From positions 1,724 through 65,723 of the forward strand of contig PCWB01000027.1 of NCBI GenBank assembly GCA_002796135.1: a stretch of DNA of 64,000 nt, read 5' to 3'. The notes under the pieces were generated by a model. That model made no database searches and was not told where the DNA came from. It was given only the letters and a program-made list of their open reading frames with translations. A program made the position numbers and the translations under genes. Positions 1-62,425 of the stretch are shown here, in pieces (position 1 is the first letter of the stretch; each line of letters begins with the position of its first letter). The DNA comes from Candidatus Omnitrophica bacterium CG11_big_fil_rev_8_21_14_0_20_41_12. Its GTDB lineage: Bacteria > Omnitrophota > Gorgyraeia > Gygaellales > Profunditerraquicolaceae.

Positions 1-773
1 AATACCGGTAATTTCAATATCTGCTTATCAAACCAATATCTACCTTTTTCAGTCTTAAGATAATTTTTGAATAAATATATACCTACACCAATACCAATCA
101 CGGTATACAAGAAATATTTTCTTAAAAGGTCACTGGCAAAAATTAAAACCTGCGTCGGCATAGGCAGTGTCCCGCCGAGAGAATCAAATATCCCTTTAAA
201 CGTAGGAACCACCTTAAGCAAAAGCACTGCTGTAATAACCGCTGCCATACTCACAACTACTGCAGGATAAACCAGGCTTGAAGTAATCTTTCGGTTAAGC
301 GCTGCCTGCTTTTCCATAAAGGTGGCTAAACGATCCAGGATCTCATTTAACATACCGGATGCCTCTCCGGCTTTGGTCATATTAACAAACAGCTCTGAAA
401 AAACCGCCGGGTGCTTGGCCAAAGCATCACAAAAACTTACTCCCCCTTCTATATCATTTTTTACTCCCCCGACAATACCTCTTAAATTTTCATTTTCAAT
501 CTGTTCAGATAGAATCCCTAGGGCATTGACCAGGGGAATACCTGCATCGATCATCGTGGCCAGCTGACGGGAAAAGATAACCAGATCTTCAAGCTTAACT
601 TTCTTATCACCGGACTTGCGCTTAACCGCAGCAGCTTTAGCAGCTCCTATAGAAACAACCACCAAATCTTTTTTGTGCAAGATATCGGCAACCTCTGTTT
701 CACTTTCAGCCTGAAGTATTCCGGTAATCGTCTGACCTTTTATATCTTTTGCGCTATATTGATAGGAGTTCAT
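1..773 (-). CDS. pilC: Type IV pilus assembly / T2SS platform protein PilC (GspF family). The N-terminal ~257 aa are in the window; the 3' end runs off the window edge.
   Basis: Reverse-complement translation from ATG at 773 gives MNSYQYSAKDIKGQTITGILQAESETEVADILHKKDLVVVSI...DLVIFSRQLATMIDAGIPLVNAL..., a typical GspF/PilC N-terminal domain. It is not in the ORF track because there is no in-window stop. Its ATG overlaps the TGA of the upstream HD-GYP gene (ATGA). Confidence 0.85.
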   Translation of the reverse strand, partial: MNSYQYSAKDIKGQTITGILQAESETEVADILHKKDLVVVSIGAAKAAAVKRKSGDKKVKLEDLVIFSRQLATMIDAGIPLVNALGILSEQIENENLRGIVGGVKNDIEGGVSFCDALAKHPAVFSELFVNMTKAGEASGMLNEILDRLATFMEKQAALNRKITSSLVYPAVVVSMAAVITAVLLLKVVPTFKGIFDSLGGTLPMPTQVLIFASDLLRKYFLYTVIGIGVGIYLFKNYLKTEKGRYWFDKQILKLPV

Positions 774-1840
774 AGATTATCCATTATTTTTAAAAATGCA
801 TCAACAATTTTTGGGTCAAATTGCGTTCCGCTATTACGCTTAATCTCCAAAACCGCCTCGTCTTTAAGGAACGGCACTTTCCTGTAGGAGCGGGCCGAAC
901 GCATCGCCTCATAAGCATCGGCAACATGGATTATGCGGGCACCCAAAAGAATATCATTACCTTTTCTACCTTCCGGATAGCCTGAACCGTCATAATGTTC
1001 ATGATGTTGCCTAATTAAGTCTACCACTTCGTTTAAAAAAGTCAACGGTTCCAGGATTTGGGCCCCGATAGTCGGATGCTTACGTATCTGCTCCCACTCA
1101 ATGCTGGTAAGAGCGGTTGTCTTTAATAATATGTTATCGCTAATCCCGATCTTACCTAAATCATGCAATTCACAAGCCTGCCGCAATACCTCAATCTCTT
1201 TTGCCGAAATTTTTAGATAATTTGCGATAGCAATAGCAATCCGCGCAACATTCTCAGAATGACTATGCGTATAATGATCTCTAGCATCGATTGCCTGGGC
1301 CAAAACCTTAATCGTACGCATATAGGTTGACCGTAGATCCTCATAAAGGCGGCTTAAATTAGTCGTGGCATCCTCAATCCTTCTGGCCAAAAGCGTATTC
1401 TGTTTTTCAAGGGCCTGATTGGCCTCTTTCAAGCCTTGAGAAAATTTACGGTTAGCCAAAAGTAAGGCGTGTAATTTAACCCCTTTTTCAATAATAAATT
1501 TTAATTTCTCTATGTTGAACGGGCGGATTAAAGAATCATATATTCCCGCCTCGGCCAGCTCTTTTGCTTTTTGTTCTTCACCGTTCTCAAGCAGAATAAC
1601 GATTATACAATCAGGATCAATTTTTTTAAGTTCATTGATCAGCCAAAGCGCATCTGCCTGAGAGATCGCATACCTTATAAAAACTAAATCATAATTATTC
1701 TGATTTAGGCTCGTAATACCTGAATGCGGATTGGATTCCACGCGAATAGAATAAGCCCCCAAGCCAAGTATCTGTTCTTTAACGTAACCAGAATATGCTG
1801 TATCTTCACAAAATAAAAGTATTTTCCCGCCGTTGCTCAT
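770..1840 (-). CDS. HD-GYP c-di-GMP phosphodiesterase with a degenerate (pseudo) receiver domain, RpfG-like
   Basis: The C-terminal HD-GYP domain carries HDLGK...HHEHYDGSGYP. The N-terminal CheY-like fold has the phospho-acceptor position occupied by Arg (DLVFIR versus DLVLLD), and K109 is also replaced by Arg (SLIRPF). Confidence 0.85.
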   Translation of the reverse strand: MSNGGKILLFCEDTAYSGYVKEQILGLGAYSIRVESNPHSGITSLNQNNYDLVFIRYAISQADALWLINELKKIDPDCIIVILLENGEEQKAKELAEAGIYDSLIRPFNIEKLKFIIEKGVKLHALLLANRKFSQGLKEANQALEKQNTLLARRIEDATTNLSRLYEDLRSTYMRTIKVLAQAIDARDHYTHSHSENVARIAIAIANYLKISAKEIEVLRQACELHDLGKIGISDNILLKTTALTSIEWEQIRKHPTIGAQILEPLTFLNEVVDLIRQHHEHYDGSGYPEGRKGNDILLGARIIHVADAYEAMRSARSYRKVPFLKDEAVLEIKRNSGTQFDPKIVDAFLKIMDNL

Positions 1841-1842
1841 AC

Positions 1843-3558
1843 CTATTCCTCGGTAGTAATCCTGATTGCCTCATCCAAAGTAGTCTGCTCTTCCCTAACT
1901 TTCAGAAAAGCATCATCGCGCAAAGTTTTCATACCTAATTTCTTAATTGCATAAGCCTTAATTTCATCTAAAGAATTTCTACGGATGATCATCTCTCTTA
2001 TGTTATCATCAATGAGCAGCGTTTCGAGCACCGCAACCCGTCCATAAAAACCGGTATTATTGCAATACTTACAACCCTGAGCAGCATAAAATGTGGTTTT
2101 GCCGCTACTAAAGCCTATTTGTTTAAGAAAATCTTCAGGAACCTCTATTGGTTTACGACATTTAAGACAAATTTTTCGCGCCAGCCGCTGCGCACAAAGC
2201 ATAATTACACTGGAAGCAACTAAAAATGGCTCCACCCCCATATCAATAAGGCGGGTAATGCTGGAAATCGCATCATTAGTATGCAAGGTAGAAAGTACGA
2301 GTTGGCCGGTTAATGCCGCTTTGATAGCGATATCGGCGGTTTCAGCGTCCCGGATCTCGCCGATCATAATTACATCCGGGCTTTGCCGCAAGATAGAACG
2401 CAATCCTGAAGCAAAATCTAAACCGATATCCGGCTTAACCTGCATCTGAGTAATTCCATCAACTTGATATTCTACCGGATCCTCGATAGTAATAATATTT
2501 TTTTCCGGAGTATTCAGCTGATTTAAAACAGAATAAAGCGTCGTGGATTTCCCTGAGCCGGTCGGCCCGGTAACCAGCATCATGCCAAAAGGCTTGGCCA
2601 CAGCTTTCTTAAAGTTAGTATCCGGCTGTTCGGAAAACCCCAATTTATCCAAGCCGATCGATAGATTACCTTTATCTAAAGCGCGCAAAACAAATTTCTG
2701 CCCGAAAGTCGTCGGAAGGCTGGAAACTCGAAAATCTATCTCCCGGCCTTCTGTTCTTACCTTAAATCTGCCATCTTGAGGAATGCGATTTTCAGTAATA
2801 TCCAGATTAGAAATAATTTTAAGTCTGGCTAAAATTGCATTTTGATTTATTTTCGGAACCTTTAAAATATCATGCAAGGAGCCGTCTACGCGATATCGAA
2901 TACGCAGACAATCAATCTCCGGCTCGATATGAATATCCGAAGCCCTTCTTTTTAAAGCTTGCGCTAATATAATATCGACTAGTTGCACAATGGGAGCCTT
3001 CTGGCTATCCTGAAGGGTGCCGCTCAACTCAATCGCATCAGCTTTAACCAGTTCTAAATTCTTTTCCAGATCTCCGACGTGACCCAGTGTTACTTCATCA
3101 AGGACACTCTGCATCTCCTTAACTTCTTTACGATATTGGCTATCAATAGCACGATTGATCTCATCCTCAGGGCTTACGACAATATCAATCTTACTTCCGG
3201 TAAAATTACCTAAATCATCTAACGCAAAAATATTTAACGGATCCGACATCGCCACAGTAAGGGTATTGCCGATTTTCGATAAAGGAATAGTATTATAAAG
3301 CTTGGCCATCTGCTCGGGAATCAAATTAACAATCTCGGTATCAAACCTGAATTTAGCCAAACGCAAAGAAGGCAGATAAAGCTGTTCTGAGAATAATGAA
3401 AGCAGGATCTCTTCCGTAATAATTCCTTCATCAATCAAAACTTTTCTTAAAGGCATCTCCTTCTCTTTTTGTAAACTTAAAGCCCGATCCAGCTGCTCTT
3501 TGGTAATATGGTTGCTCTTTAAAAGTATCTCGATTATATTTTCTCTTAATGAATGCAT
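1843..3558 (-). CDS. pilB: Type IV pilus assembly ATPase PilB / GspE family, copy 1
   Basis: N-terminal GSPII_E_N/MshEN-like domain, Walker A GPTGSGKSTT, and a C-terminal tetra-Cys zinc motif (CLKC...CKYC). Confidence 0.85.
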   Translation of the reverse strand: MHSLRENIIEILLKSNHITKEQLDRALSLQKEKEMPLRKVLIDEGIITEEILLSLFSEQLYLPSLRLAKFRFDTEIVNLIPEQMAKLYNTIPLSKIGNTLTVAMSDPLNIFALDDLGNFTGSKIDIVVSPEDEINRAIDSQYRKEVKEMQSVLDEVTLGHVGDLEKNLELVKADAIELSGTLQDSQKAPIVQLVDIILAQALKRRASDIHIEPEIDCLRIRYRVDGSLHDILKVPKINQNAILARLKIISNLDITENRIPQDGRFKVRTEGREIDFRVSSLPTTFGQKFVLRALDKGNLSIGLDKLGFSEQPDTNFKKAVAKPFGMMLVTGPTGSGKSTTLYSVLNQLNTPEKNIITIEDPVEYQVDGITQMQVKPDIGLDFASGLRSILRQSPDVIMIGEIRDAETADIAIKAALTGQLVLSTLHTNDAISSITRLIDMGVEPFLVASSVIMLCAQRLARKICLKCRKPIEVPEDFLKQIGFSSGKTTFYAAQGCKYCNNTGFYGRVAVLETLLIDDNIREMIIRRNSLDEIKAYAIKKLGMKTLRDDAFLKVREEQTTLDEAIRITTEE

Positions 3559-3563
3559 TATCG

Positions 3564-5279
3564 TTATTCGTCCGGTGCGGTTACCCGCAGGACCTCTGCG
3601 ATTGTGGTATGCCCGGCTAAAACAGCCCTAAGCCCATCCTCACGTAAAGTCTTCATACCCTCAAGGCGCGCTTGCTGCTTAATAAACTGCTCCTGCGAAC
3701 CGCTAAGGATTAACTCCCGAACCTTAGGGCTAACCTGTAAAACCTCGGCAATTACCGTTCTTCCGGAATAACCGCTATTAAAACAATGCTGGCAACCTTT
3801 GCCTTTATAGAATTTTAATTTATCAGTTCCTGCCGGCTTCAATTTCAAACTAGCAACAACTTCATCCTTAAGAACATATGCCTCCTTACAATAAGAACAG
3901 ACTTTGCGTACGAGGCGCTGTGCCATAACACAGACTAAAGAAGAGTTGATCAAATAAGGCTCAACTCCCATGTTCACTAAACGCACTACAGCACCGGCAG
4001 CGGTAGTCGTATGTAAAGTAGAAAGAACCAAATGTCCGGTAAGGGCACTTTTAATCGCGATATCCACAGTTTCATAATCACGTATTTCTCCGATCATAAT
4101 GACATTAGGATCCTGTCGTAAGATCGATCGGAGTGCTGCTGCAAAACTAAGACCAATCTCAGGCCTTGAAGTTACCTGATTGATGCCCTCCAGTTGAAAC
4201 TCAACCGGGTCCTCCACGGTAACAATATTTTTATCCGGGCTATCTACGGATTTTAGTACCGCATAAAGCGTCGTAGTTTTACCGCTCCCTGTCGGTCCAC
4301 AAACCAAAATCATACCATGAGGAAGCAGAGAAACTTTACGCAAAACCTCCAAAGCATAATCGCTAAAACCTAATTTCTTCATATCCAGATTTGCCTGCGA
4401 TTTATCCAGAATACGTAAAGCAACCTTCTCCCCGAAGCTGGATGGTAAAATAGAAACGCGGAAATCTATCTCACGATTAAGTATTTTAACCTTAAAACGC
4501 CCGTCTTGGGGGATACGGTGTTCGGCAATATCCAGCTGAGACATAACCTTAATACGTGATACTATCGACGGATGCATATTCTTTGACGGAGTCTTCTGCT
4601 CTTGAAGAATACCGTCAATGCGGAAACGTATGCGTAATTTTTTATCAAACGGCTCAACCAACACGTCAGAGGCCTTCTTTTTAATTGACTCCTCCAGAAT
4701 CATATTAACAACCTTGATCACCGGAGCCTCTTGGCTGATCCTGCCTAACTCCTGATCGCTAGGCAATATTTCCTTTTCCTCCTTAATTAATTCAATGGAA
4801 GAAACAGTCATTTCTTTAACCAAATCATCGATCAAGCCCTTAGTCGTATCAGGATAAGATAATTCTATGGCCTGAGTGATATCCTGAACCGGAGAAATGA
4901 TAGGATTAATTTTAAAACCAGTGAGCGACTGTACGTGGTCAATGGCAAATATATTCAATGGATCAGCCATCGCCAGAGTAATCGTATCTCCCATTTTTGA
5001 TATAGGGATGATCTGGTAATGCCGGGCAATTTCAACTGAAATTATTTTTACGATATCAAGATCGATCTTAAAACGTTTTAAATCAATTAAAGGCAAGCCC
5101 AACCCCTCGCTCAAAGCGGTGATTAACTCATTTCCCTTAACAAACTTAAGCTCTACAATAATATCGCTCAGCTTTCCCCCCTTAGTGGTTTGGACACTAA
5201 GTGCCTGCTTAAGCTGGTCTTCAGTAATAAGTTTATTATGGATTAATATTTCGGTGAGTCGGTCTTTAAGGGATAGCAT
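3564..5279 (-). CDS. Type IV pilus assembly ATPase PilB / GspE family, copy 2 (tandem paralog of identical length)
   Basis: Same architecture as copy 1: GSPII_E_N domain, Walker A GPTGSGKTTT, tetra-Cys CSYC...CQHC. It lies 5 nt upstream of copy 1. Confidence 0.85.
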   Translation of the reverse strand: MLSLKDRLTEILIHNKLITEDQLKQALSVQTTKGGKLSDIIVELKFVKGNELITALSEGLGLPLIDLKRFKIDLDIVKIISVEIARHYQIIPISKMGDTITLAMADPLNIFAIDHVQSLTGFKINPIISPVQDITQAIELSYPDTTKGLIDDLVKEMTVSSIELIKEEKEILPSDQELGRISQEAPVIKVVNMILEESIKKKASDVLVEPFDKKLRIRFRIDGILQEQKTPSKNMHPSIVSRIKVMSQLDIAEHRIPQDGRFKVKILNREIDFRVSILPSSFGEKVALRILDKSQANLDMKKLGFSDYALEVLRKVSLLPHGMILVCGPTGSGKTTTLYAVLKSVDSPDKNIVTVEDPVEFQLEGINQVTSRPEIGLSFAAALRSILRQDPNVIMIGEIRDYETVDIAIKSALTGHLVLSTLHTTTAAGAVVRLVNMGVEPYLINSSLVCVMAQRLVRKVCSYCKEAYVLKDEVVASLKLKPAGTDKLKFYKGKGCQHCFNSGYSGRTVIAEVLQVSPKVRELILSGSQEQFIKQQARLEGMKTLREDGLRAVLAGHTTIAEVLRVTAPDE

Positions 5280-5323
5280 AGATATTTAGGATATCAGCGC
5301 TAAAATACTTAAGTACTTTGCAG

Positions 5324-5770
5324 TTATTCAGTTTCCTTATAGTATTTTTCGATTGCTTTTTTTATATCAGAGGAGGTTGAAACAAACGTTTGTACGCTGC
5401 ATCCGCTAAGCAATTCCACATCCTCAATAGCCTGAACGTTTAAAGGATTCGACATGGCCAAAGTCAGATTATTACCGATTTTATCTATCGGCACAAGCAG
5501 ATATTGCCGGGCAACTCTGCCGGGAATAATACTGGTAATTTCAGTATTCACATCATAGCTGCCTAAGGGCAGATAAGGAAAGCCATATTGAGCGGTTAAT
5601 GACTGGGCAATATCATCTTCTTTAACAAATCCCAGTTCAACTAAAATCTCACCGATTAATCCCCCCTTATCCCGCTGAACTCCTAAAGCCTGATCAAGCT
5701 GAGACTGGTTAAGGATCCCGCGCTCAAGTAAAAGCTCGCCTAATTGTTTTTTATTAACTCTTCTGATCAT
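5324..5770 (-). CDS. Standalone T2SS-E N-terminal (MshEN-type) domain protein, putative c-di-GMP receptor
   Basis: 148 aa with no ATPase domain. It contains two tandem approx. 24-aa motifs matching the MshEN c-di-GMP-binding pattern (QLGELLLERGILNQSQLDQALGVQ and LIGEILVELGFVKEDDIAQSLTAQ), followed by the conserved ...LLVPI...GNxLTLAMSNPLN... region. Confidence 0.7.
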   Translation of the reverse strand: MIRRVNKKQLGELLLERGILNQSQLDQALGVQRDKGGLIGEILVELGFVKEDDIAQSLTAQYGFPYLPLGSYDVNTEITSIIPGRVARQYLLVPIDKIGNNLTLAMSNPLNVQAIEDVELLSGCSVQTFVSTSSDIKKAIEKYYKETE

Positions 5771-5789
5771 CGCTTAAACATTTTACTAT

Positions 5790-7211
5790 TTAAAAAACTA
5801 CTACCCGGTTTTTTCCCAAGCCCTTGGCTTGCTTCAACAGTTCCTTAGCCTTATCAATTAGCTGTTGAGCATTAACTCCATCAAGCGGATTTTCAGAAAC
5901 CCCTGCGCTCACAGTAATACTTTTTATGCTATCCTGATCCAGTAGAAAAGCCGTCTGGATTTTCTTACGTATATCCTCTGCCACCTCTTGAGCCTGACGC
6001 TTATTTTTTTCCGGAAGAATCAGGGAAAATTCATCATCATCAGTTCTGCCTGCCCGGTCAACTTCGCCAATTCCGCTTTTCAATAAAACCGCGATCTTCT
6101 TTAACGCTGCTTCGGCATTAATTAATCCAAGCTTTTCGCGGTAATTTTTAAAATTATCAATATCAAAAATAATAAAAGCACATGGTCGCTGATAAACAAT
6201 CGCCCTTTTAATCTCCTCTTGCAAGCGCATAGAAATAAAATTCTGATTGTAAAGTCCGGTGAGGATATCCTTGGTTTCCAGTTTCTCGACACGGTGGGCT
6301 AAAATATCATTCTCGATAGCAATGGCAATCTGCTTTGAGAATATATCCAGGAGTTCGATATCTTCTTTAGAATATAAAAAATCCTCTCGGCTATTGGTAA
6401 TTCCCAACACACCTTTAACTTTGCCGGTTAAAAATATCGGTACGGATAAACAATTTTTTACCTGAAACTTGGCAAAAAAATCAGTGGCAAGGCCACTATC
6501 TAATGAATTTTTTTTATCTAAGATTAGAGATTTATTCAAATTAAAAACCTTATTATATAAATTCTCCCATGCCCCTACTTCTACAGTCATTAGATGATCC
6601 GCCCCTGCTCCATCGGCAGTTCTTATATGGAAGGATTCCCTGCCTTCCTCTTTAAAAAGTAAAAACGCGGTTTCTGAGTTAGCTAAAAGCCTGGATTTTT
6701 CTACTGCAATTTTTAAGATATCTTCGAATGTCCCACCCTGAGAGATAAGTGAACTTACCTGTAATAAATTCGAAAGGATAAATATTTTTTTCTGAATCTC
6801 TAAGTTGATCTCACTGGTCTTTTCACTGTAAGCTTTAAGCTCATCCATATTGCCCCGGATACGGTTGGTAAGCTGATTTAATACGTTGCCCAACTCCCCA
6901 ACCTCATCACCTTCCCGCACATCCAATTTACGGCTAATATCACCCGCAGCAATAACCTTGGCCTCTGTGGCTACCTTGGAAAGGCGGTCAAAGATCTCTT
7001 TAACCACAAAAAGGCCGATAACCGCTACAAATACACTAATAACAAGGGAGGCAACAACATCAACCTTAAACCCGAATTTAGGCAAAATATAATTTGAGAC
7101 CAGATATGCGCAAACTAAAAACGGTAAAATAGACATTAGCTGAAAAGCAATCATCAGCTTTTGTTTTATGGTACGCGAACTTAATGACAAACGGTTGATT
7201 TTCTTATTCAT
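5790..7211 (-). CDS. Membrane HAMP-GAF-GGDEF domain protein with a degenerate active site (DDDEF)
   Basis: Two N-terminal TM helices, a HAMP region, a GAF-like middle, and a C-terminal GGDEF fold (LTGLYNQNF...FDIDNFKNY...). The signature reads RTDDDEF instead of GG(D/E)EF, and no RxxD I-site lies upstream of it. The start was moved to the internal ATG at 7211 (GGAGATAAC-ATG RBS); the ORF-track start at 7250 has no RBS. Confidence 0.8.
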   Translation of the reverse strand: MNKKINRLSLSSRTIKQKLMIAFQLMSILPFLVCAYLVSNYILPKFGFKVDVVASLVISVFVAVIGLFVVKEIFDRLSKVATEAKVIAAGDISRKLDVREGDEVGELGNVLNQLTNRIRGNMDELKAYSEKTSEINLEIQKKIFILSNLLQVSSLISQGGTFEDILKIAVEKSRLLANSETAFLLFKEEGRESFHIRTADGAGADHLMTVEVGAWENLYNKVFNLNKSLILDKKNSLDSGLATDFFAKFQVKNCLSVPIFLTGKVKGVLGITNSREDFLYSKEDIELLDIFSKQIAIAIENDILAHRVEKLETKDILTGLYNQNFISMRLQEEIKRAIVYQRPCAFIIFDIDNFKNYREKLGLINAEAALKKIAVLLKSGIGEVDRAGRTDDDEFSLILPEKNKRQAQEVAEDIRKKIQTAFLLDQDSIKSITVSAGVSENPLDGVNAQQLIDKAKELLKQAKGLGKNRVVVF

Positions 7212-7283
7212 GTTATCTCCGTAATCTATTCCGAATACTGGAAAAACCAATTAATTTATCTAATAATTATATCCCGTAACTCA

Positions 7284-9035
7284 TCATATATCAATAGATT
7301 TGTTGAATTCTGTCAACAGTCCTTCCTTGGCTACCCCGGTATCAATAAAATCCCAGGGCAACGCACAGGCAGTTGACTTGTCACCAAGATATGCCTGCGG
7401 ATCAATCCCCTCTTCAGAGAATGCTTCTTGCCACTTAGTAAATGAAAAATAATTCGACCAAGCATCAAACTTGGCCCCTTTTCTATAAGCAGTAAGGATG
7501 ACTTTACCCAGCTTTCTATCCCCCCTGGAAAGTATCCCTTCCAAAAAACTTATCTGTGAATTATGAAAACTGAATTTAAGCCTCCGGTTTTTACAATTTG
7601 ACCTTAAATAGTCCTGCTTTTCCTGGATTTGGGTAATTGAATCCATCTTTAACCATTGTAAAGGCGTATGGGGCTTGGGAATTAAGGGATTTACGCTGAT
7701 ATTAATTTGAGCTGCAGCTCCGCTGATTTCCCTTTTTAATTCCGAAGACCGTTTTGCAAAATCGATTATCCCCTGCAAATCTGCTTGAGTCTCCCCGGGT
7801 AAACCAATAAGAAAATATAACTTCAAATGCTGATAGCCGCATTTATAAGCATCGGCGATAGCTTTAAAAAACTCTTCTTCGGAAAAATCCTTAGCCAAAG
7901 CCTGGCGCAACCTGTGTGTTCCTGCCTCCGGAGCAAAAGTCAGGCCTGTCTTTTTTGCTTTGGCAATTAGTGTAGAAACATTGCCTAACAAAGCTTTAGC
8001 TTTTAACGAAGGCAGGGACAGGCTAACTCCCTGCTCTTTAAAATTTCCAGTTAAAGAAGAAACAAGGGCTTCTAAGTCAGGATAATCGCTTACGGATAAA
8101 CCCGCTAAAGATAATTCCTCATATCCGGTAGCCAGATAGGCAAGATTAGCCTGTGAAATTATTTTTTCTTTACTTTTTATTCTCAGAGGATAATATTGGC
8201 TCCTGGCCTGGCAAAAACGGCAGCGGTTAGGGCAACCGCGCATAATCTCTAAAGTAATCCGGTCATGTATCACCGGAACATTAGGCACCATCCAATTACA
8301 GGGAAAATATGACGATTCAAAATCAACGACTACCCGTTTTTTAATTTTTAAGGGCAAGCTATCGACCCTAGGATAAAAGGCGGCAAACTCTCCTGTAGCA
8401 TTATAATCTACTGAATACAAAGACGGCGCGTATACTCCTTCTATTTTAGTCAGCTCAATCAACAGTTTTTCTTTCGGCAGGCGGCCGCTTTTATAATCTT
8501 GCTTAAGACGCCGATATAAAACTAATAGCTCTACAATCGCCTCTTCTGCCTCACCGATAATAAATAAATCAATAAAATCAGCCATCGGCTCAGGATTAAG
8601 AGTAGCGGGGCCTCCGGCGATAACCAAAGGAAGTTTATGATCACGTAAGCAGGATTGTAGCGGCAGGCCGGCAAGATCTAAAATATTTAATACGTTAGTA
8701 TAATTTAATTCCGAACCAAGAGAGAAGCCCAACATATCAAAATTGATCAGCTCCTGATTTGATTCCCAGGAAAAAAGCCGCCTGTTGGCATTTTTTAAAG
8801 ATGCCTCCATGTCAGCTTCACAGGCAAAAAACCTTTCACAAACTACATCCTCAAGATTATTTAAAACGCCGTAGATGATACGCAAGCCTAAATTACTCAT
8901 CCCCACTTCATATAGATCAGGAAAACCTAAAGCAAAATTTATTAAAGCAGGATCGAAGTGTTTTTGGGATACATTCCATTCATTACCCAGATATTGTGCA
9001 GGGCGGTGCACATTTAAAAACAAATCTTCAATCAT
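7284..9035 (-). CDS. B12-binding-like/radical SAM domain protein (TIGR03960-like, uncharacterised)
   Basis: CxxxCxxC cluster motif in RGCPNRCRFCQ and a long N-terminal extension. It is 2 nt upstream-adjacent to rodA. Confidence 0.8.
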   Translation of the reverse strand: MIEDLFLNVHRPAQYLGNEWNVSQKHFDPALINFALGFPDLYEVGMSNLGLRIIYGVLNNLEDVVCERFFACEADMEASLKNANRRLFSWESNQELINFDMLGFSLGSELNYTNVLNILDLAGLPLQSCLRDHKLPLVIAGGPATLNPEPMADFIDLFIIGEAEEAIVELLVLYRRLKQDYKSGRLPKEKLLIELTKIEGVYAPSLYSVDYNATGEFAAFYPRVDSLPLKIKKRVVVDFESSYFPCNWMVPNVPVIHDRITLEIMRGCPNRCRFCQARSQYYPLRIKSKEKIISQANLAYLATGYEELSLAGLSVSDYPDLEALVSSLTGNFKEQGVSLSLPSLKAKALLGNVSTLIAKAKKTGLTFAPEAGTHRLRQALAKDFSEEEFFKAIADAYKCGYQHLKLYFLIGLPGETQADLQGIIDFAKRSSELKREISGAAAQINISVNPLIPKPHTPLQWLKMDSITQIQEKQDYLRSNCKNRRLKFSFHNSQISFLEGILSRGDRKLGKVILTAYRKGAKFDAWSNYFSFTKWQEAFSEEGIDPQAYLGDKSTACALPWDFIDTGVAKEGLLTEFNKSIDI

Positions 9036-9037
9036 AA

Positions 9038-54112: not shown

Positions 54113-54580
54113 TTATTTTAATTGTCCGGATAAGCTAACCATCTCAATAGCTGACAAAGCGGCATCTCTACCTTTGTTACCGTCTTTAGAGCCTGCGCGC
54201 TCCACTGCCTGCTCGATACTATCGGCGGTAATTATACCAAAGATGACCGGTATTCCGCTATCTAAAGAAACTTTAGCAACCCCTTTAGCTGCTTCCGAAG
54301 CAATATAATCAAAATGCGGAGTTGCTCCGCGGATAACCGTACCTAAACAAATCAAAGCGTCAAAAGATTTGGTTTTAGCCATCTTCTGAGCAACCAGCGG
54401 AACCTCAAATGCGCCGGGAACCCAGGCTACCGTAATATCCTTATCTTCTGCTCCGTGCCGGACTAAAGTATCAATACAACCACTGACTAACTCTTTAGTC
54501 ATGAAATCATTGAAACGTGAAGCCACCAAACCAAAGGTTTGGCCTTTTGCCAACAGCTTGCCTTCAATTACCTTTGCCAT
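54113..54580 (-). CDS. ribH: 6,7-dimethyl-8-ribityllumazine synthase
   Basis: Lumazine synthase fold ([10 protein letters not shown]...[10 protein letters not shown]). Confidence 0.9.
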
Positions 54581-54594
54581 CTTTCCTCCTTGTG

Positions 54595-55803
54595 TTAGAG
54601 ATCTAGATAATGCCCTAGTTTCTCTTTTTTTGTTTTTAAATATTTATAATTCTGAGCGCCGGGTTTAATCTCTAACGATATGCGCTCGGCAACCTCTAAG
54701 CCATAACCTTCTAAACCTACGATCTTACGCGGATTATTCGTTAATAACTTTATTTTTTTAACTCCCAAATCAACCAGGATCTGAGCTCCGATGCCGTAAT
54801 CACGCAAATCAGCTTTATGCCCCAAGGCTTCATTGGCCTGAACAGTATCCATTCCCTGATCCTGAAGATTATACGCACGTATCTTTTCAACTAAGCCGAT
54901 ACCCCGGCCCTCCTGATTCATATAAAGGATTATGCCTTTTTTCTCGCCTCCGATGATCTCCATCGCTTTTTCTAATTGATGCCCGCAATCACAGCGTAGC
55001 GAACCAAAGACATCTCCGGTTAAACACTCCGAATGAACGCGCACCAATATTGACTCATCCGACCAGCTGCCCATACACAAAGCAATATGCGTTTGGGCGT
55101 TGGTTTTGTCGCGGTAAATAATTAATTTAAATTCTCCGAATTTTGTAGGTAATATTGTCTGAACCACTACTTCGACTAATTTTTCCCTCCTGCGGCGGTA
55201 TTCGATCAGGCTGGCAATCGAACAAATTTTTAAAGCGTGCTTTTTAGAAAATTCCAGAAGTTGCGGCAGGCGAGCCATTGAACCATCGTCATTCATAATC
55301 TCGCAAATTACTCCCGCCGAATAAAGCCCACAAAGACGCATTAAATCCAGGCTTGCCTCAGTATGCCCGGCGCGCACCAATACTCCACCGAGGCGCGAGC
55401 GTAGAGGAAAAACATGCCCCGGACGAATTAAGTCCTCAGGCTTGGTTTTAAGATTAGTTAAGATTTCAATTGTCTTGGCCCGATCAGCCGCAGAGATCCC
55501 CGTGCTTATCGAGCGCGCCGCATCAACCGAGATCATCCAGGCAGTCTTAAAAGGATCCTCCTTAGTCGCCGCCAGAGTATTTTTAAGCATTGGATCAAGC
55601 TCCAAAAAACGCAACCTCTCCTCTTCCATCGGAACACAGATCAGCCCCCGGCCGAATTTAGCCATAAAGTTTATATCTTCCGGCTTGGCACTTGAGGCAG
55701 CCATGATTAAATCACCTTCATTTTCGCGGTCTTCATCATCAACCACGATAACCATTTTGCCTGCTTTTAAATCTTCTAAAATTTCCGGTATTGAATTAAA
55801 CAT
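54595..55803 (-). CDS. ribBA: Bifunctional 3,4-dihydroxy-2-butanone-4-phosphate synthase / GTP cyclohydrolase II
   Basis: N-terminal DHBP synthase domain ([11 protein letters not shown]) and a C-terminal GCH-II zinc site (CxxGHxxxxxC type). Confidence 0.9.
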
Positions 55804-55810
55804 AAGCCCC

Positions 55811-56081
55811 TGTAAAAAATAAGCCCAAAAAGATAATCCTCGGGCATCGTAATTTTAATCTTCTTCCATCTGGACTTTCTCATACGCTTTTACACCCCGC
55901 GTTTATAAGATATTACGCGGGTGTTCGTTCGTACGAACCATCGGCCCTGGAATCTCACCAGATCTGCCTAGCACATTGTTTAAGCACCCAGCGCTAAATT
56001 GCATTGCGCTGGTGCCTGCTCGTGCAGGGCTCGCGGGCTAAACCGCCGGTAAGGAATTTCACCTTGCCCTAAAGATTAATT
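55811..56081 (-). promoter_or_regulatory. FMN riboswitch (RFN element) with a terminator-type expression platform, leader of the rib operon
   Basis: The reverse complement contains the RFN cores GGGCAAGGUGAAAUUCCUUACCGGCGGU, AGCCCGCGAGC and GAUCUGGUGAGAUUCCAGGGCCGAUGGU, plus the 3' strand GUCCAGAUGGAAGAAGAU. An extra inserted hairpin (CACCCCGCG...CGCGGGGUG) is present. A hairpin GCCCGAGGAUUAUCUUUUUGGGC followed by UUAUUUUUU lies just before the ribBA RBS. Confidence 0.8.
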
Positions 56082-56087
56082 GTTAGT

Positions 56088-56115
56088 ATTTTAACAGAAA
56101 ATCTAACCTTGTCAA
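56088..56115 (-). promoter_or_regulatory. Promoter of the FMN riboswitch / rib operon
   Basis: The transcribed strand reads TTGACA-N16-TAAAAT. The predicted start falls at the riboswitch 5' end, about 56081. Confidence 0.45.
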
Positions 56116-56137
56116 TACAATTAAAAACGATTATAAT
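56109..56137 (+). promoter_or_regulatory. Promoter of cinA-C/thpR, divergent from the rib promoter and overlapping it; predicts a leaderless transcript
   Basis: TTGTCA-N17-TATAAT. The -35 hexamer overlaps the -35 of the opposing rib promoter in the palindromic TTGTCAA. The -10 ends 6 nt before the cinA ATG and no SD is present. Confidence 0.45.
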
Positions 56138-56143
56138 ACCTTT

Positions 56144-56614
56144 ATGGCCAATGAAATTTTAAAACAGGCGCATAAAAAATTGCTGGCAAAGGGCAAAACC
56201 ATCGCAATTGCCGAATCCTGCTCCGGAGGACTACTCTCCTGCCTCTTAACCGAGCTACCCGGATCCTCCAAATACTTTATCTCAGGAGTAGTTACCTACA
56301 GCAATAGCTCTAAAGAAAAAATCCTGAATATTCCCGCAAAAATAATCGCTAAATACGGAGCAGTCTCTAAAAATGTTGCGCTACTAATGGCAGAAAATAT
56401 CCGTAAAAAATCAAATTCCGACTTTGCCCTTAGCCTAACCGGAATTGCCGGACCTGCCGGCTCAACTAAAAATAAACCCATCGGTACGGTCTTTGTCTGT
56501 TTATCCTCTAAGAATAAAAATATCTGCCGTAAATTTTCTTTACGCGGCAGCCGCCAAGCTATCCGTAAAAAATCTGCTTACCAGGCTCTACGTCTATTAT
56601 GCGCGCATTTATAG
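56144..56614 (+). CDS. CinA C-terminal domain protein (nicotinamide-nucleotide amidohydrolase PncC-like)
   Basis: Standalone CinA_C domain (TIAIAESCSGGLLS...LTGIAGP). Confidence 0.8.
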   Translation: MANEILKQAHKKLLAKGKTIAIAESCSGGLLSCLLTELPGSSKYFISGVVTYSNSSKEKILNIPAKIIAKYGAVSKNVALLMAENIRKKSNSDFALSLTGIAGPAGSTKNKPIGTVFVCLSSKNKNICRKFSLRGSRQAIRKKSAYQALRLLCAHL

Positions 56615-57171
56615 CAATTGATCTGCCACCGCAAATCAAAGATGCAATCTCAAAAACACAGGATAAATTTAAAAATGCCTTACCTAAAATCAGCTGGGTA
56701 AAACCGGTTAACCTCCATCTTACTTTAAAGTTTCTTGGAGAAATATCTCCTAAACAGCTAGATTTGATAAATCAGATCATTGATAAGATTTGCAGCAAAG
56801 CCAATAACTTTAAGATCAGGCTGGAGGCCATGGATCTCCTCCCCGATATTGCTCGCGCACGGATAATCTGGATAGGTACTGAAAAAATAGAGGCGCAATT
56901 ACAGCAAATTGTCGAAGAGTTAGAGACAAAACTTTCACAATTAGGAATTCCTAAAGAAAAACGCCACTTTTGTGCGCATATTACTATCGGCCGCATCAAA
57001 ACGCATATTGCGCCTTCTATTCTAGAAGAAACGCTCGGGAAATTAAAAAATGGGCTGTTAAGAGAAAAATTGAAGTTTGCTGCAGAAAAGATTACTCTAT
57101 TCCAAAGCACACTTGGCCCGGCAGGGCCGGATTATGCGGTTTTAAAAGAAGCTAATTTTAAGATCACCTGA
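56599..57171 (+). CDS. thpR: RNA 2',3'-cyclic phosphodiesterase (2'-5' RNA ligase family, LigT/ThpR)
   Basis: Two HxT/Sx motifs (HLTLKF and HITIGR) in a 2H phosphoesterase fold. It overlaps the cinA stop. Confidence 0.8.
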   Translation: MRAFIAIDLPPQIKDAISKTQDKFKNALPKISWVKPVNLHLTLKFLGEISPKQLDLINQIIDKICSKANNFKIRLEAMDLLPDIARARIIWIGTEKIEAQLQQIVEELETKLSQLGIPKEKRHFCAHITIGRIKTHIAPSILEETLGKLKNGLLREKLKFAAEKITLFQSTLGPAGPDYAVLKEANFKIT

Positions 57172-57611
57172 AGCACGATATTTGTATATATACCTGCGAC
57201 TAAATCATCGATCATTATCCCGGATGCGCCATGCAGATACTGCAACCTGCCCACCGGAAACGGCTTAAGCGTATCCAGAATTCTAAAGATAAGAAAAGCC
57301 AAAATGATTATCTTCAAATCATACGGCATAAAACTCAAAGCCACCAACATACCCATGACTTCATCGATCACAACGCAGGAAGGATCTTTTTTATTGATTA
57401 ATTTTTCCATCCTGCCGCCGGTTAAAAACCCTAAAATTATTACGCACAAGATTACCGAAAAATAAGCCGGCTGACTTGCCCCCTTAAACAGATAAAATAA
57501 ACCAATTCCGGCAACGGTGCCGAAAGTCCCCGGCATCAAAGGCAAATATCCGATAAAAAAAACCGAAGCAACTGCCTTAGTCAAAAAATTACTAAAATCA
57601 TTTAGTTTCAT
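57132..57611 (-). CDS. pgpA: Phosphatidylglycerophosphatase A
   Basis: PgpA family membrane protein (FFIGYLPLMPGTFGT). Its 3' end overlaps the thpR 3' end by 40 nt in convergent orientation. Confidence 0.8.
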   Translation of the reverse strand: MKLNDFSNFLTKAVASVFFIGYLPLMPGTFGTVAGIGLFYLFKGASQPAYFSVILCVIILGFLTGGRMEKLINKKDPSCVVIDEVMGMLVALSFMPYDLKIIILAFLIFRILDTLKPFPVGRLQYLHGASGIMIDDLVAGIYTNIVLQVILKLASFKTA

Positions 57612-58195
57612 AAGCGGGTAATAATTTTGCGGTTATCCCAAAGATAGGATAATCCGGAGTAAAGGGTCAGGGCCACGGTAAGCAGCATAAGATAAAAAAT
57701 TCCCTGACGGAAAACACTCTCCCAGGCGGGATTCCAGGTGAAATATTTCAGCACAACTTCTTTAAGCAGGATAAAACCTAAAATTGTAAAAATCACCAGC
57801 ATTTGCAAAACTGTTTTATGCTTGCCGGCGCGCGCTGCGGATAATACCTTGCCTTTATTTAAAGCAAATAGGCGCAAAGAAGTAATCAGAATTTCCCTGG
57901 AGACAATGATCATAAACATCCAGGCGTCGATCAATTGCAACTGCACAAATGCCGCAAAAGCCGTCAAGACCAGAATTTTATCAGCAATCGGATCCATAAA
58001 CCTACCGAAATCCGTAACCATATTCCTGCGTTTAGCTATAAAACCATCGAGAAAATCAGAAACGGCAGCAAAAATAAATATAACCAAAGCCAATAGCTTT
58101 GTCCACCAGATCTTATCCAGTGCCGGCAGAAAAAGTAAAGCAAAGACAAAAGTAAGAATTATCCGAAGCATGGTTATTTTATTGGCAAGATTCAT
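57608..58195 (-). CDS. pgsA: CDP-diacylglycerol-glycerol-3-phosphate 3-phosphatidyltransferase
   Basis: CDP-alcohol phosphatidyltransferase motif DFLDGFIAKRRNMVTDFGRFMDPIADK. Confidence 0.85.
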   Translation of the reverse strand: MNLANKITMLRIILTFVFALLFLPALDKIWWTKLLALVIFIFAAVSDFLDGFIAKRRNMVTDFGRFMDPIADKILVLTAFAAFVQLQLIDAWMFMIIVSREILITSLRLFALNKGKVLSAARAGKHKTVLQMLVIFTILGFILLKEVVLKYFTWNPAWESVFRQGIFYLMLLTVALTLYSGLSYLWDNRKIITRL

Positions 58196-59439
58196 TGTTT
58201 TAGCTCCCCCACTAAATCATACTCTAATGTATCAATAATTTTTACCCGGCAAAACTCTCCGGTCTTAAGTCTTCGATTAGTCTTGACATAGACTACTCCG
58301 TCTACTTCCGGAGCGTCAAACTGGCTACGTCCGATATAGGCACCATCTTGCTTATCTTCAATAAGCACATCCATACTCTGAGCCATAAATTTCTTATTTA
58401 ATTCAGCGGCTATTTTTTGCTGTTCGGACATAATCATATCAAACCTCTCTTCTTTGGCCTTCTTAGAGATCTGTCCGCCAAAGCAATAGGCCGGGGTATC
58501 CTCTTCCCGGGAATAAATAAAAGCGCCCAGCCTGTCGAATTTTACTTCCTTAATAAAATCTAAGAGTTCATTAAATTCTGCCTTAGTTTCCGAAGGAAAA
58601 CCGACGATCAGGGAGGTACGTAAACAAACCCCGGGAATAACCGACCTGATCTTCTTAATTAAAGCAATGATTTGCTCTTTGCTAAATCTACGGTTCATCA
58701 GCTTCAAGATACGGTTATTAATATGCTGAATCGGCAGATCAATATACTTGCAAACCCGCTTATTTTTCGCAATCAATTCAAGCAACTCTTCAGTGATCCT
58801 CTCGGGATGCAGATACAAAAGACGGATCCAGGAAATATCGGGAGAATTCTTGATTATCTTTTTCAAAAGAACGGCTAATTTGCTCTTGCCAGAGCTATCT
58901 ACGCCGAAACCGGTAATGTCCTGGCCGATAATATTGAGCTCGGAAATTTTTTCCCGGTTCAGCTGCCTGACTTTTTGAATGATTGTCTTCTCATCCAGGC
59001 TCTTCAGCCTTCCTTTAATCCGGGGAATTACGCAATAGCTGCAATTATTCAGGCATCCTTCACAAATTTTCAAATATGCATAATGCTTAGGGGTCAGAGC
59101 ATATCTCTTTAATCCATGATCCTGCTCAAGAGAACCGATGAAAGCATCAACTTCAGGCAGCTCATCCTTTAGATCTTTATAACGCTGCGGCAGACAACCG
59201 CAAACAATTATTTTTTTAAGTTTCCCCTGCTTCTTTAATTCTATTGTCTCAAGAATAGCATCAATTGATTCGCGCCTGGCCTCTTCAATAAAAGCGCAGG
59301 TATTCACCAGAGCAATTTGGGCTTTCCCTAAATCATCGACAATCGAATAACCTTTGGCGTGAAGCCTGCCAGCCAGGGTTTCAGCATCAACCAGATTCCG
59401 CGGACAGCCTAAAGACAGTATTCCCAATTTTTGTTTCAT
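58192..59439 (-). CDS. rimO: Ribosomal protein S12 methylthiotransferase RimO (MiaB-family radical SAM)
   Basis: N-terminal MTTase domain LSLGCPRNLVDAE, radical SAM CLNNCSYC, and a C-terminal TRAM domain. Confidence 0.85.
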   Translation of the reverse strand: MKQKLGILSLGCPRNLVDAETLAGRLHAKGYSIVDDLGKAQIALVNTCAFIEEARRESIDAILETIELKKQGKLKKIIVCGCLPQRYKDLKDELPEVDAFIGSLEQDHGLKRYALTPKHYAYLKICEGCLNNCSYCVIPRIKGRLKSLDEKTIIQKVRQLNREKISELNIIGQDITGFGVDSSGKSKLAVLLKKIIKNSPDISWIRLLYLHPERITEELLELIAKNKRVCKYIDLPIQHINNRILKLMNRRFSKEQIIALIKKIRSVIPGVCLRTSLIVGFPSETKAEFNELLDFIKEVKFDRLGAFIYSREEDTPAYCFGGQISKKAKEERFDMIMSEQQKIAAELNKKFMAQSMDVLIEDKQDGAYIGRSQFDAPEVDGVVYVKTNRRLKTGEFCRVKIIDTLEYDLVGELKQ

Positions 59440-62416: not shown

Positions 62417-62425
62417 TTCTAAAAA

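Follow-up and report, generated by a model that had tools for sequence, protein, structure and literature searches.

MshEN is one of the few widespread c-di-GMP receptor domains, and PilZ-FimX is a known trans-acting c-di-GMP sensor for PilB; the principle of trans sensing for PilB is thus not new, and a short ATPase-less MshEN protein (PA3740) is also already known. The coupling of ligand binding by the N1/MshEN domain to PilB function is treated as an open question in a review (PMC11656802), and several described proteins provide points of comparison. First, Vibrio cholerae MshE (VcMshE; MshEN structure PDB 5HTL) combines a two-subdomain fold and two 24-residue motifs that flank a 5-residue spacer with a fused T2SSE ATPase, and the isolated MshEN_N subdomain binds c-di-GMP without the C-subdomain (PMC5013675). 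Secondly, T. thermophilus PilF carries an array of several GSPII tiers before its motor; GSPII-B (PDB 8PDK), one of these tiers and covalently part of the ATPase, binds with a KD of 6 nM (PMC11731258), and GSPII-A (PDB 9G1W) is a non-binding 'landing pad' that shows no c-di-GMP binding even when the full consensus is restored, a property attributed to an N-cap together with inter-subdomain hydrophobic contacts (PMC12002112). Thirdly, MshEN proteins without an ATPase include PA3740 ('MshEN - xT2SSE_N1') of P. aeruginosa, which is treated by Wang et al. as an experimentally characterised c-di-GMP binder and is linked to swarming, and Cyanothece cce_1044 ((MshEN_N)2) (PMC5013675). Literature searches found neither a characterised free-standing MshEN in a pilB operon nor work on PilB and c-di-GMP in Omnitrophota.

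The window analysed here, the whole stretch of 64,000 nucleotides, encodes a free-standing MshEN (GSPII) domain protein at positions 5324–5770, in an ATG-to-stop open reading frame of 148 codons plus stop on the minus strand (the strand is absent from an earlier, sequence-only reading of this DNA). That reading had taken the protein to consist only of the T2SS-E N-terminal domain, and we confirm this: a whole MshEN/GSPII domain makes up the entire protein. Both profiles bearing on its proposed HMM check score above cutoff: Pfam MshEN PF05157 matches residues 62–147 (66.2 bits, E 2.7e-18; cutoff 23.1 bits) and the 53-residue NCBIfam model NF053729 'c-di-GMP_motif' matches residues 9–61 (59.0 bits, E 2.9e-16; cutoff 38 bits), although the NF053729 match is weak evidence by itself, as the neighbouring PilB2, whose motif is clearly broken, likewise scores above cutoff (44.4). 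The Pfam scan found no PF00437 T2SSE ATPase domain and no PilZ, EAL or GGDEF domain before the chain ends at residue 148, and the TIGR02538 score is 78.7 against a cutoff of 675. The AlphaFold2 (AF2) model (pLDDT 87.4) has helices at residues 10–16, 22–35, 39–45 and 51–62 followed by a beta/alpha unit, giving the two-subdomain fold of a four-helix N-terminal bundle and an alpha/beta T2SSE_N1 subdomain. When compared with the PDB by Foldseek it matches 5HTL (VcMshE with c-di-GMP) with the best E-value (1.3e-11), and also matches 9G1W and 8PDK. Superposition gives a TM-score of 0.85 (rmsd 1.8) to GSPII-A and 0.69 to holo MshE, the lower value being one to read in the light of the apo-like form expected of an AF2 model.

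The two tandem 24-residue repeats quoted by the sequence-only reading are both present and in register, motif I at residues 9–32 (QLGELLLERGILNQSQLDQALGVQ; 5675–5746, minus strand) and motif II at residues 38–61 (LIGEILVELGFVKEDDIAQSLTAQ; 5588–5659, minus strand), with the canonical five-residue spacer at residues 33–37. Although overall identity to VcMshE is only about 29–30%, residues 7–69 of VcMshE, including motif I at 9–32, align without gaps, and L10, G11, G18, L25, L29, Q32, G40, G47, L58 and Q61 are identical; the differences are R9 to Q, R38 to L, L39 to I, L54 to I and D108 to N. All of the Gly, Leu/Ile and Gln residues through which VcMshE and PilF GSPII-B contact c-di-GMP are kept, including the motif glycines (G11, G18, G40 and G47) and glutamines (Q32 and Q61). 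At the hydrophobic-triangle positions (L10/L54/L58 and L25/L29/L39), L10, L25, L29 and L58 are present, and residues 39 and 54 are Ile, a conservative change; Ile for Leu has been shown to be tolerated at the counterparts of 54 and 58 (PMC12002112). Binding is abolished by replacement of glycines with bulky residues and by glutamine loss, as in XpsE (PMC5013675) and at A41, H33 and R62 (PMC12002112). Among the best 80 of 440 species-level relatives, motif I retains L10 and G11 in 80/80, L25 and L29 in 79/80, and G18 and Q32 in 74/80, and motif II retains L38, G40, I54, L58 and Q61 in 80/80 and G47 in 77/80. The 26 diverse free-standing relatives keep G11 in 26/26, G40 in 25/26, Q61 in 22/26 and Q32 in 18/26.

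Where the consensus has Arg as the first residue of each motif, motif I has Q9 and motif II has L38; we note that this position had been masked as 'x' in the pattern used by the sequence-only reading. An extended consensus admits R, K or L here, with Leu giving nanomolar affinity (PMC11731258). L38 (80/80) falls within this set and corresponds to L196 of motif II in GSPII-B, the 6 nM binder, and Q9 falls outside it. The start of motif I in the free protein, QLGELLL, resembles the KLGELLL of GSPII-B; K167, D266 and R268 of PilF correspond to Q9, N108 and L110. Position 9 is Q in 62, P in 13, H in 3, A in 1 and R in 1 of the 80 species, and roughly one in three close orthologues has P. Proline in this position is accepted in the relaxed pattern of Wang et al. 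(PMC5013675) and occurs in motif II of PilF GSPII-C, and in the remote free-standing relatives the residue is mostly R, K or L (17/26). A motif I starting with Q or P nevertheless lies outside the characterised binders and counts against a receptor role.

Relatives of the free MshEN protein are encoded in 440 species-level genomes; the best 80 are essentially all from Candidatus Omnitrophota, as are the named remote relatives. The 120 best homologues are all 146–149 amino acids long with 84–99% identity, and in comparison with locus L001 the free protein is 92.6% identical, the PilBs 88–89%, and the GGDEF and HD-GYP proteins 81–83%, placing the gene second only to MreB in conservation within the cluster. 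The gene is thus a real and constrained one. A pseudogene or fragment is ruled out by the fixed length, by evolution slower than that of the PilBs and by the 44-nucleotide gap to the next gene. Many orthologues are labelled 'type IV pilus assembly protein PilB' by JGI, as might be expected of a gene-calling artefact or of what is left of a third pilB after truncation, but the same fixed length and slow evolution, and a gap between its stop and pilB1 too short for ATPase remnants, leave that origin with a negligible probability.

The gene lies just upstream of pilB, as had been described, with pilB1 44 nucleotides downstream on the same strand. PilB1 (3564–5279, minus strand; T2SSE 456 bits, TIGR02538 634 bits) and PilB2 (1843–3558, minus strand; T2SSE 438 bits) are MshEN-T2SSE assembly ATPases with degenerate c-di-GMP motifs. 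The proposal that the repeats are better conserved in the free protein than in the adjacent PilBs is borne out both by the NF053729 scores (59.0 versus 52.8 for PilB1 and 44.4 for PilB2) and by the ligand-contacting residues, which are kept in the former and replaced in the latter. PilB1 of the window has G11T, G18K, G40S, G47K and Q61G, and PilB2 has G11I, G18N, G40R and L38P; among orthologues these changes recur in PilB1 (G11T 60/67, G40S 67/67, Q61G 61/67) and in PilB2 (G11I 39/50, G40R 50/50, L38P 44/50), and an intact free protein beside degenerate PilBs is also seen in the remote clusters L084, L086 and L087. The further suggestion that the sensor had been split off from the ATPase does not hold: each of the two PilBs still carries a full MshEN-type N-domain of its own (Pfam scores of 66 and 67.5 bits), and PilB1_N (39% identity), PilB2_N (33%) and Geobacter PilB_N (40%) are all about equally distant from the free protein. 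These values rule out a recent split or duplication of a neighbouring pilB, and, judged by them, the free protein is a long-standing additional paralogue rather than the product of a recent fission.

The C-terminal T2SSE_N1-like subdomain (residues 62–148; 5327–5587, minus strand) is a candidate partner-docking surface. Over 50 species its mean identity is 88%, and 48 of 84 columns reach 95% invariance or more. This exceeds the conservation of the PilB ATPase cores, and within the free protein itself the ligand subdomain is the less conserved of the two. Because MshEN_N alone is sufficient to bind ligand, this extreme conservation points to a putative second function in partner contact. The subdomain resembles its PilB1 and PilB2 counterparts, with a common PxxK.G..T.AM.[ND]PLN block, and is homologous to the GspL-binding N1 domain of GspE (weak Foldseek matches to 2BH1 and 4PHT; reviewed in PMC11656802). 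The free protein might therefore be a decoy N1 domain that competes with the PilB N-domains for PilM/PilC docking and inhibits extension, possibly being released by c-di-GMP. We consider this very unlikely, as the features in which this family invariably departs from the PilBs, N108 in place of D and a QYGFPYLPL linker, suggest a distinct surface; this reading differs from our preferred explanation, a trans-acting receptor for the pilus machine, solely in the sign of the effect.

Conservation of the C-subdomain above that of the ligand subdomain is also compatible with a non-binding adaptor or 'landing pad' of the GSPII-A type, a protein-protein module in which the motif is kept for structure. 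GSPII-A is the closest structure by TM-score, and the free protein resembles it in having N108 (PilF N111) at the D108 position, L110 (PilF L113) and Y62 (PilF F63), the last two being equivalents of the GSPII-A inter-subdomain lock. These likenesses weigh against a receptor role, as does the residue at position 9, and the consensus by itself is insufficient for binding (PMC12002112). L110, Y62, L58 and L10 could form a hydrophobic cluster like that of GSPII-A, a feature for which AF2 is reported to be unreliable. However, GSPII-A (H33, S39, A41 and R62) and both PilB paralogues have drifted at the ligand positions, so that the fold evidently does not need G11, G40, Q32 and Q61, and yet the free protein retains all four in 74–80 of the 80 species, with G11, G40 and Q61 in 22–26 of the 26 remote relatives (Q32 in 18). 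Moreover, the N-cap residue T5 of GSPII-A corresponds to an invariant Arg and PilF L116 to Q113. The N-cap positions of the free protein are R4 and K7 rather than T/S/D and E/Q/D, and a GSPII-A-type N-cap is absent at the homologous register, an N6..Q9 capping box being possible. On this balance an adaptor without ligand is unlikely.

Comparison of gene order places the protein within a pilus locus. The order degenerate GGDEF–MshEN–PilB1–PilB2–pseudo-REC-HD-GYP–PilC is kept in nearly all of the 80 loci, and the core MshEN–PilB–PilB–...–PilC–pilin is kept in L084, L086 and L087, the three remote loci that contain PilB, whose free proteins are 40–53% identical to that of the window. Preceding the free gene in this order is a HAMP-GAF-GGDEF protein (5790–7250, minus strand; GGDEF 104 bits) with the degenerate active-site motif DDDEF. 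Its orthologues have [G/D]-x-[D/N]-E-F, mostly GDDEF or DDDEF. Among the 33 orthologues listed from a 70-orthologue alignment, which represent 25 distinct motif strings, not one has a canonical GG, and the window protein has no RxxD I-site; it is probably catalytically dead. Directly upstream of it is the region's best match to a sigma-70-like promoter (7266–7294, minus strand; TTGATA-17-TATAAT, 11/12 matches), a consensus match only. The free MshEN gene is probably co-transcribed with pilB1, pilB2, the HD-GYP gene and pilC. The N-terminal part of PilC (T2SSF platform protein; 1–773, minus strand) is an open frame starting MNSYQYSAKD that runs off the window start, with its ATG at 773–771 overlapping the HD-GYP stop; its orthologue in L001 has 402 residues and T2SSF domains. 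The Pfam scan found no further pilus or c-di-GMP genes among ten open reading frames at 54113–63985, which are housekeeping only.

Between PilB2 and PilC is a pseudo-receiver HD-GYP protein (770–1840, minus strand; HD_5 110 bits, weak Response_reg 36 bits), a candidate c-di-GMP phosphodiesterase with HD and HHEHYDGSGYP motifs. Aligned orthologues never have Asp where CheY has D57 (the commonest five residues are K25, R10, N3, Q2 and A2), and a receiver without a phospho-acceptor would need another input. The free MshEN could be that input, regulating or partnering the HD-GYP enzyme in a c-di-GMP-dependent manner, in feedback or local buffering, and not acting on the PilB motors. Loci L059, L070 and L050 fit such a role, having the arrangement rSAM–MshEN–HD-GYP, from which GGDEF, PilB and PilC are all missing, and with MshEN proteins that are about 81–83% identical and intact in the C-subdomain; these loci count against a pilus receptor, as do the L082 remote paralogue, which adjoins no PilB, and the inactive appearance of the sole GGDEF protein of the locus. 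However, PilB and PilC may lie elsewhere in the L059, L070 and L050 genomes, and L087 has MshEN–PilB–PilB–PilC without HD-GYP, the place of which is taken in L086 by another free MshEN. A role confined to the phosphodiesterase is thus distinctly unlikely.

The explanation that we favor, with modest confidence, is that the 148-residue protein acts in trans as a c-di-GMP receptor for a type IV pilus machine with two PilB-type motors. The comparative data strengthen the receptor role, which is plausible, and because the two neighbouring motors have broken sensor sites the free protein probably senses c-di-GMP for them. A single c-di-GMP would be bound across motifs I and II in the N-terminal four-helix bundle, with L38 stacking on one guanine in the manner of L196 in GSPII-B. 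The ligand-dependent state would be relayed through the near-invariant C-terminal subdomain, which could dock on PilB1 and PilB2, adding as a subunit of its own one more GSPII tier to an N-terminal array like that of PilF, or alternatively on the PilC/PilM platform, so as to gate pilus extension. The neighbouring HD-GYP enzyme may set the local c-di-GMP level, and, given that the adjacent GGDEF protein is probably dead, the signal itself is likely made outside the locus.

Such an arrangement departs from the described systems in several respects. It is alike in principle to the PilZ–FimX–PilB relay of Xanthomonas and Pseudomonas, but has no PilZ or EAL domain, the putative trans sensor being itself an MshEN paralogue, and differs from PilF and VcMshE in that the domain is a separate polypeptide. 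The architecture of the free protein matches that given for PA3740 in Supplementary Table 4 of PMC5013675, PA3740 and cce_1044 being compared by description only; the C-subdomain of PA3740 is highly diverged and that of cce_1044 missing, unlike the canonical and hyper-conserved T2SSE_N1 that is fixed upstream of two PilBs in the Omnitrophota family. A separate hyper-conserved sensor beside motors with dead sensor sites would be a natural separation of functions and implies a conserved docking partner for the N1 C-subdomain. The free MshEN is a small soluble protein for biochemistry and makes trans-complementation possible, and Omnitrophota, an uncultured phylum, gain a concrete candidate c-di-GMP output.

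We also entertain a bolder version, unlikely as it stands, in which the N1 tier of the Omnitrophota pilus motor is a dissociable c-di-GMP-sensing subunit common to two c-di-GMP-blind PilBs, with occupancy picking which ATPase engages PilC. If true, this would be a second-messenger switch between two motors in a split PilF-like architecture, with the two motors possibly taking the place of a PilB/PilT extension-retraction pair. We note that the apparent PilB1–PilB2 fusions of 1170 and 1173 amino acids in L006 and L042, which at first suggested a hetero-oligomer, are artefacts, with a run of 100 N at each junction.

The 148-residue MshEN-only protein is encoded on the minus strand at 5324..5770 by an ATG-to-stop open reading frame, within a group of genes that all lie on this strand. 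In transcription order these are a radical-SAM gene (7284-9035), a HAMP-GAF-GGDEF gene (5790-7250), the free MshEN gene, the genes for the two MshEN-T2SSE assembly ATPases PilB1 (3564-5279) and PilB2 (1843-3558), a REC-HD-GYP gene (770-1840), and pilC, which starts with an ATG at 773-771 and extends beyond the window. The spacings from the radical-SAM gene through to the HD-GYP gene are 33, 19, 44, 5 and 2 nt, and the HD-GYP stop codon and pilC start codon share a 4-nt overlap (770-773), which suggests translational coupling. The region's best sigma-70-like match, a consensus match only, is directly upstream of the GGDEF gene, and we infer a cluster that looks like one operon. Upstream of the module is the cell-elongation cluster mreB-mreC-mreD-pbp2-rodA (Pfam labels from an orthologous locus); this cluster, the radical-SAM gene and the pilus/c-di-GMP module directly downstream (770-14351) lie on one strand with short gaps, and the synteny is kept in about 80 species (loci L001-L081). 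Ten ORFs scanned with Pfam in the interval 54113-63985 are all of housekeeping type.

The translation contains both 24-residue peptides picked out in the sequence-only reading, at residues 9-32 (motif I) and 38-61 (motif II) with a 5-residue spacer; that reading had not given the strand, and it correctly placed the gene just upstream of pilB (44 nt before PilB1, same strand). It had also described the protein as the N-terminal domain only and named a profile search and a structure comparison as checks, both of which recognize the domain. The MshEN model PF05157 matches residues 62-147 with 66.2 bits (Pfam; cutoff 23.1) and the 53-residue NF053729 'c-di-GMP_motif' model matches residues 9-61 with 59.0 bits (NCBIfam; cutoff 38), and no ATPase domain was detected in the Pfam and NCBIfam scans; this confirms the sequence-only observation, far above chance. 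The protein is not a PilB/GspE ATPase. Phmmer against PDB sequences gives full-length matches to Thermus thermophilus PilF, Geobacter PilB and Vibrio cholerae MshE (VcMshE), and the N-terminal 63 residues align without a gap to VcMshE 7-69. In an AF2 model built from a 19-sequence alignment (mean pLDDT 87.4), a four-helix N-subdomain is followed by a beta/alpha C-subdomain. In a Foldseek search of the PDB the lowest E-value belongs to the MshE-c-di-GMP complex (5HTL, 1.3e-11, TM 0.69) and the top superposition to PilF GSPII-A (9G1W, TM 0.85), which is apo and non-binding, followed by c-di-GMP-bound GSPII-B structures. In sequence and fold the protein agrees with the MshEN family except at the first residue of motif I and perhaps in a partial inter-subdomain lock (below).

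The ligand-site residues that define MshEN, taken from Wang et al. 2016 (PMC5013675), distinguish the free protein sharply from its neighbors. Across 80 species L10, G11, L38, G40, I54, L58 and Q61 are each present in 80/80, L25, L29 and I39 each in 79/80, G47 in 77/80, and G18 and Q32 each in 74/80. The PilB1 orthologues, in contrast, carry G11T (60/67), G18K (63/67), G40S (67/67), G47K (55/67) and Q61G (61/67), and those of PilB2 carry G11I (39/50), G40R (50/50) and L38P (44/50), as expected from the earlier suggestion that the repeats are better kept in the free protein than in the PilBs. Wang et al. ascribe the lack of binding by XpsE to G11V, G40L, Q61V and other changes (PMC5013675); because PilB1 and PilB2 have XpsE-like changes, both are predicted to be unable to bind c-di-GMP as MshEN does, and the complete set is left to the free protein. 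As two paralogues in these genomes have kept the fold without these residues, the fact that the free protein has them invariantly speaks for selection on ligand binding. The pattern recurs in the remote clusters L084, L086 and L087, where an intact free MshEN (sharing 40%, 53% and 45% of residues, respectively, with the window protein in alignment A3) precedes two PilBs without G11 and G40, and among 26 diverse free-standing relatives, which have G11 in 26, G40 in 25 and Q61 in 22.

The sequence-only reading's description of the sensor domain as apparently split off from the ATPase does not fit well. The free protein shares 39% identity with the PilB1 N-domain, 33% with that of PilB2 and 40% with that of Geobacter PilB, the PilB N-domains are equally distant from one another, and neither PilB has lost its N-domain (Pfam). 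By these identities the free protein is a paralogue of long standing rather than an N-terminus detached in recent times, and an extra MshEN tier with a gene of its own therefore fits better.

Several departures from the consensus bear on whether the protein binds. First, motif II opens with L38, invariant in the free family and Arg in VcMshE. PilF GSPII-B (KD 6 nM) has Leu at this position; its affinity falls with L196R and rises to 2 nM with K167L, and the consensus has accordingly been widened to (R/K/L)LG... (PMC11731258). Judged by these data L38 is in full agreement with binding and characteristic of the high-affinity type. Secondly, the first residue of motif I, Q9 in the window, is Q in 62 species, P in 13 and H in 3. 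Q lies outside the widened R/K/L set; Pro opens motif II of the binder GSPII-C (PMC11731258) and is permitted at the motif first position in Wang's relaxed pattern (PMC5013675), and R, K or L is found at motif I in 17 of the 26 remote free-standing relatives. Thirdly, Leu is replaced by I39 and I54; Ile at the 54- and 58-equivalent positions has been shown to make no difference (PMC12002112). Lastly, N108 (5447-5449; AMSNPLN) is invariant in the free family, and PilB1 and PilB2 keep D. D108 of VcMshE, equivalent to D266 of GSPII-B, makes a guanine contact from the C-subdomain (PMC5013675, PMC11731258); the remote free-standing relatives have N in 22 of 26 and D in 3. GSPII-A remains non-binding with a fully restored consensus, blocked by an extra N-cap-stabilized turn of helix 1 and by hydrophobic inter-subdomain contacts of I6, L11, I59, F63, L113 and L116 (PMC12002112). 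The free protein resembles it in N108, which matches GSPII-A N111, and this lock could be formed in part by its L10, L58, Y62 and L110; it differs at the N-cap positions, occupied by R4 and K7, neither a cap-forming residue, and in having Q113 at the L116 equivalent. Overall we consider physiologically relevant c-di-GMP binding likely.

The gene is real and strongly constrained. Searching 5.8 billion protein clusters yields 4075 matches; the best 120, each 146-149 aa long, show 84-99% identity, and those with names stem from Candidatus Omnitrophota MAGs. When each GTDB species is represented by a single genome, a relative is encoded in 440; the 80 best matches, with 73-92% identity, belong to Omnitrophota or to other-labelled MAGs with the same locus, and the order from radical-SAM gene to pilC is the same in nearly every sufficiently long locus. 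The other-labelled MAGs include some deposited as 'uncultured Planctomycetales' (L003, L005, L012, L030, L037 and others) and one as 'Candidatus Margulisiibacteriota' (L074), in which the protein is 74-91% identical to that of Omnitrophota; errors of taxonomic labelling or wrongly binned contigs are the probable cause. Within the cluster the small protein is second in conservation only to MreB, with identities in L044 of 80% for MshEN, 68% for PilB1, 50% for GGDEF, 51% for PBP2 and 82% for MreB, and in L001 of 92.6% for MshEN and 88-89% for the PilBs. Apparent PilB1-PilB2 fusions of 1170 aa (L006, 8595-12107) and 1173 aa (L042, 7321-10842) were rejected, a run of 100 Ns lying exactly at each junction. 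In the subclade of L035 (7045-7980), L037 and L051 (7137-7985) the GGDEF gene encodes only 267-311 aa and appears to have lost its sensor part, and the PilBs have diverged to an unusual degree (60-70% identity, versus 75-93% for housekeeping neighbors).

The window GGDEF protein has DDDEF in place of GGDEF (residues 404-408, 6027-6041). In 33 orthologues from a 70-orthologue alignment (25 distinct strings) the motif reads GDDEF, DDDEF, DADEF, DSDEF, DYDEF or GDNEF, with neither a canonical GG nor an RxxD I-site, and the protein is probably an inactive cyclase. The HD-GYP protein retains its HD and HHExxDGxGYP motifs (HHEHYDGSGYP in the window), and the one apparently active c-di-GMP enzyme of the locus is thus a phosphodiesterase. 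Its receiver domain has R56 (1673-1675) at the CheY D57 position, where the commonest residues among aligned orthologues are K (25), R (10), N (3), Q (2) and A (2) and Asp was not seen, while the T87 position holds L, I or V; these columns were fixed with what we take to be the CheY and PleD reference sequences. By these residues it is a pseudo-receiver. The receiver of L087, taken from the data, has Asp in the phospho-acceptor column.

This enzyme is itself a candidate partner. In three Omnitrophota species, L059 (7989-9634), L070 (7995-9545) and L050 (1908-3284), the radical-SAM, MshEN and HD-GYP genes are adjacent with no GGDEF, PilB1, PilB2 or PilC at the locus, MshEN is still ~81-83% identical, and one remote paralogue, in L082, has no adjoining PilB; that the protein works with the HD-GYP enzyme is therefore a viable alternative. 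The L059 MshEN carries G47E, and ORFs are few after the HD-GYP gene there, perhaps a sign of an rRNA operon.

A role with the pilus motor is nevertheless favored, from the C-subdomain and the gene neighbors. In the 50 species with all three genes complete, and with the window copy as reference, the MshEN C-subdomain (T2SSE_N1-like, residues 62-148) is 88% identical, with 48/84 columns at least 95% invariant, compared with 77.7% for the N-subdomain and 77.8% and 83.1% for the PilB1 and PilB2 ATPase cores. On its own, the MshEN_N subdomain is no weaker a c-di-GMP binder than the complete domain (Wang et al., PMC5013675), so the greater conservation of the C-subdomain points to a second role in protein contact. 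In GspE the homologous N1 domain is the binding site for GspL, in PilB it is believed to point towards stator and platform (PMC11656802), and PilF stacks several GSPII domains before its motor (PMC11731258). With two PilBs and PilC as constant neighbors, we favor the free MshEN as a trans-acting c-di-GMP sensor tier that would serve the PilB1/PilB2-PilC motor. This logic is already known, PilZ-FimX likewise being a sensor acting on a non-binding PilB N-domain.

Nor is the free-standing architecture new, since Wang et al. already list the ATPase-less proteins cce_1044 ((MshEN_N)2) and PA3740 ('MshEN - xT2SSE_N1'), the latter treated as an experimentally characterized binder (PMC5013675), and 52 of the best 150 matches in a representative-level search are <=215 aa, mostly single-domain proteins of 145-180 aa. 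A phylum-wide, operon-fixed and motif-intact free MshEN beside two motif-dead PilBs was not found described in a 2024 PilB-cofactor review or the MshEN literature searched. Such a clean natural separation of sensor from motor, here inferred and in an uncultured phylum, would allow what the N1 domain does to be tested. The remote Omnitrophota cluster L086 has a second free-standing MshEN of 150 aa (11034-11486) with a largely intact motif (G18N) between PilB2 and PilC, the place of the HD-GYP gene in the window, and the 145-aa P0261 protein is likewise encoded immediately before PilC.
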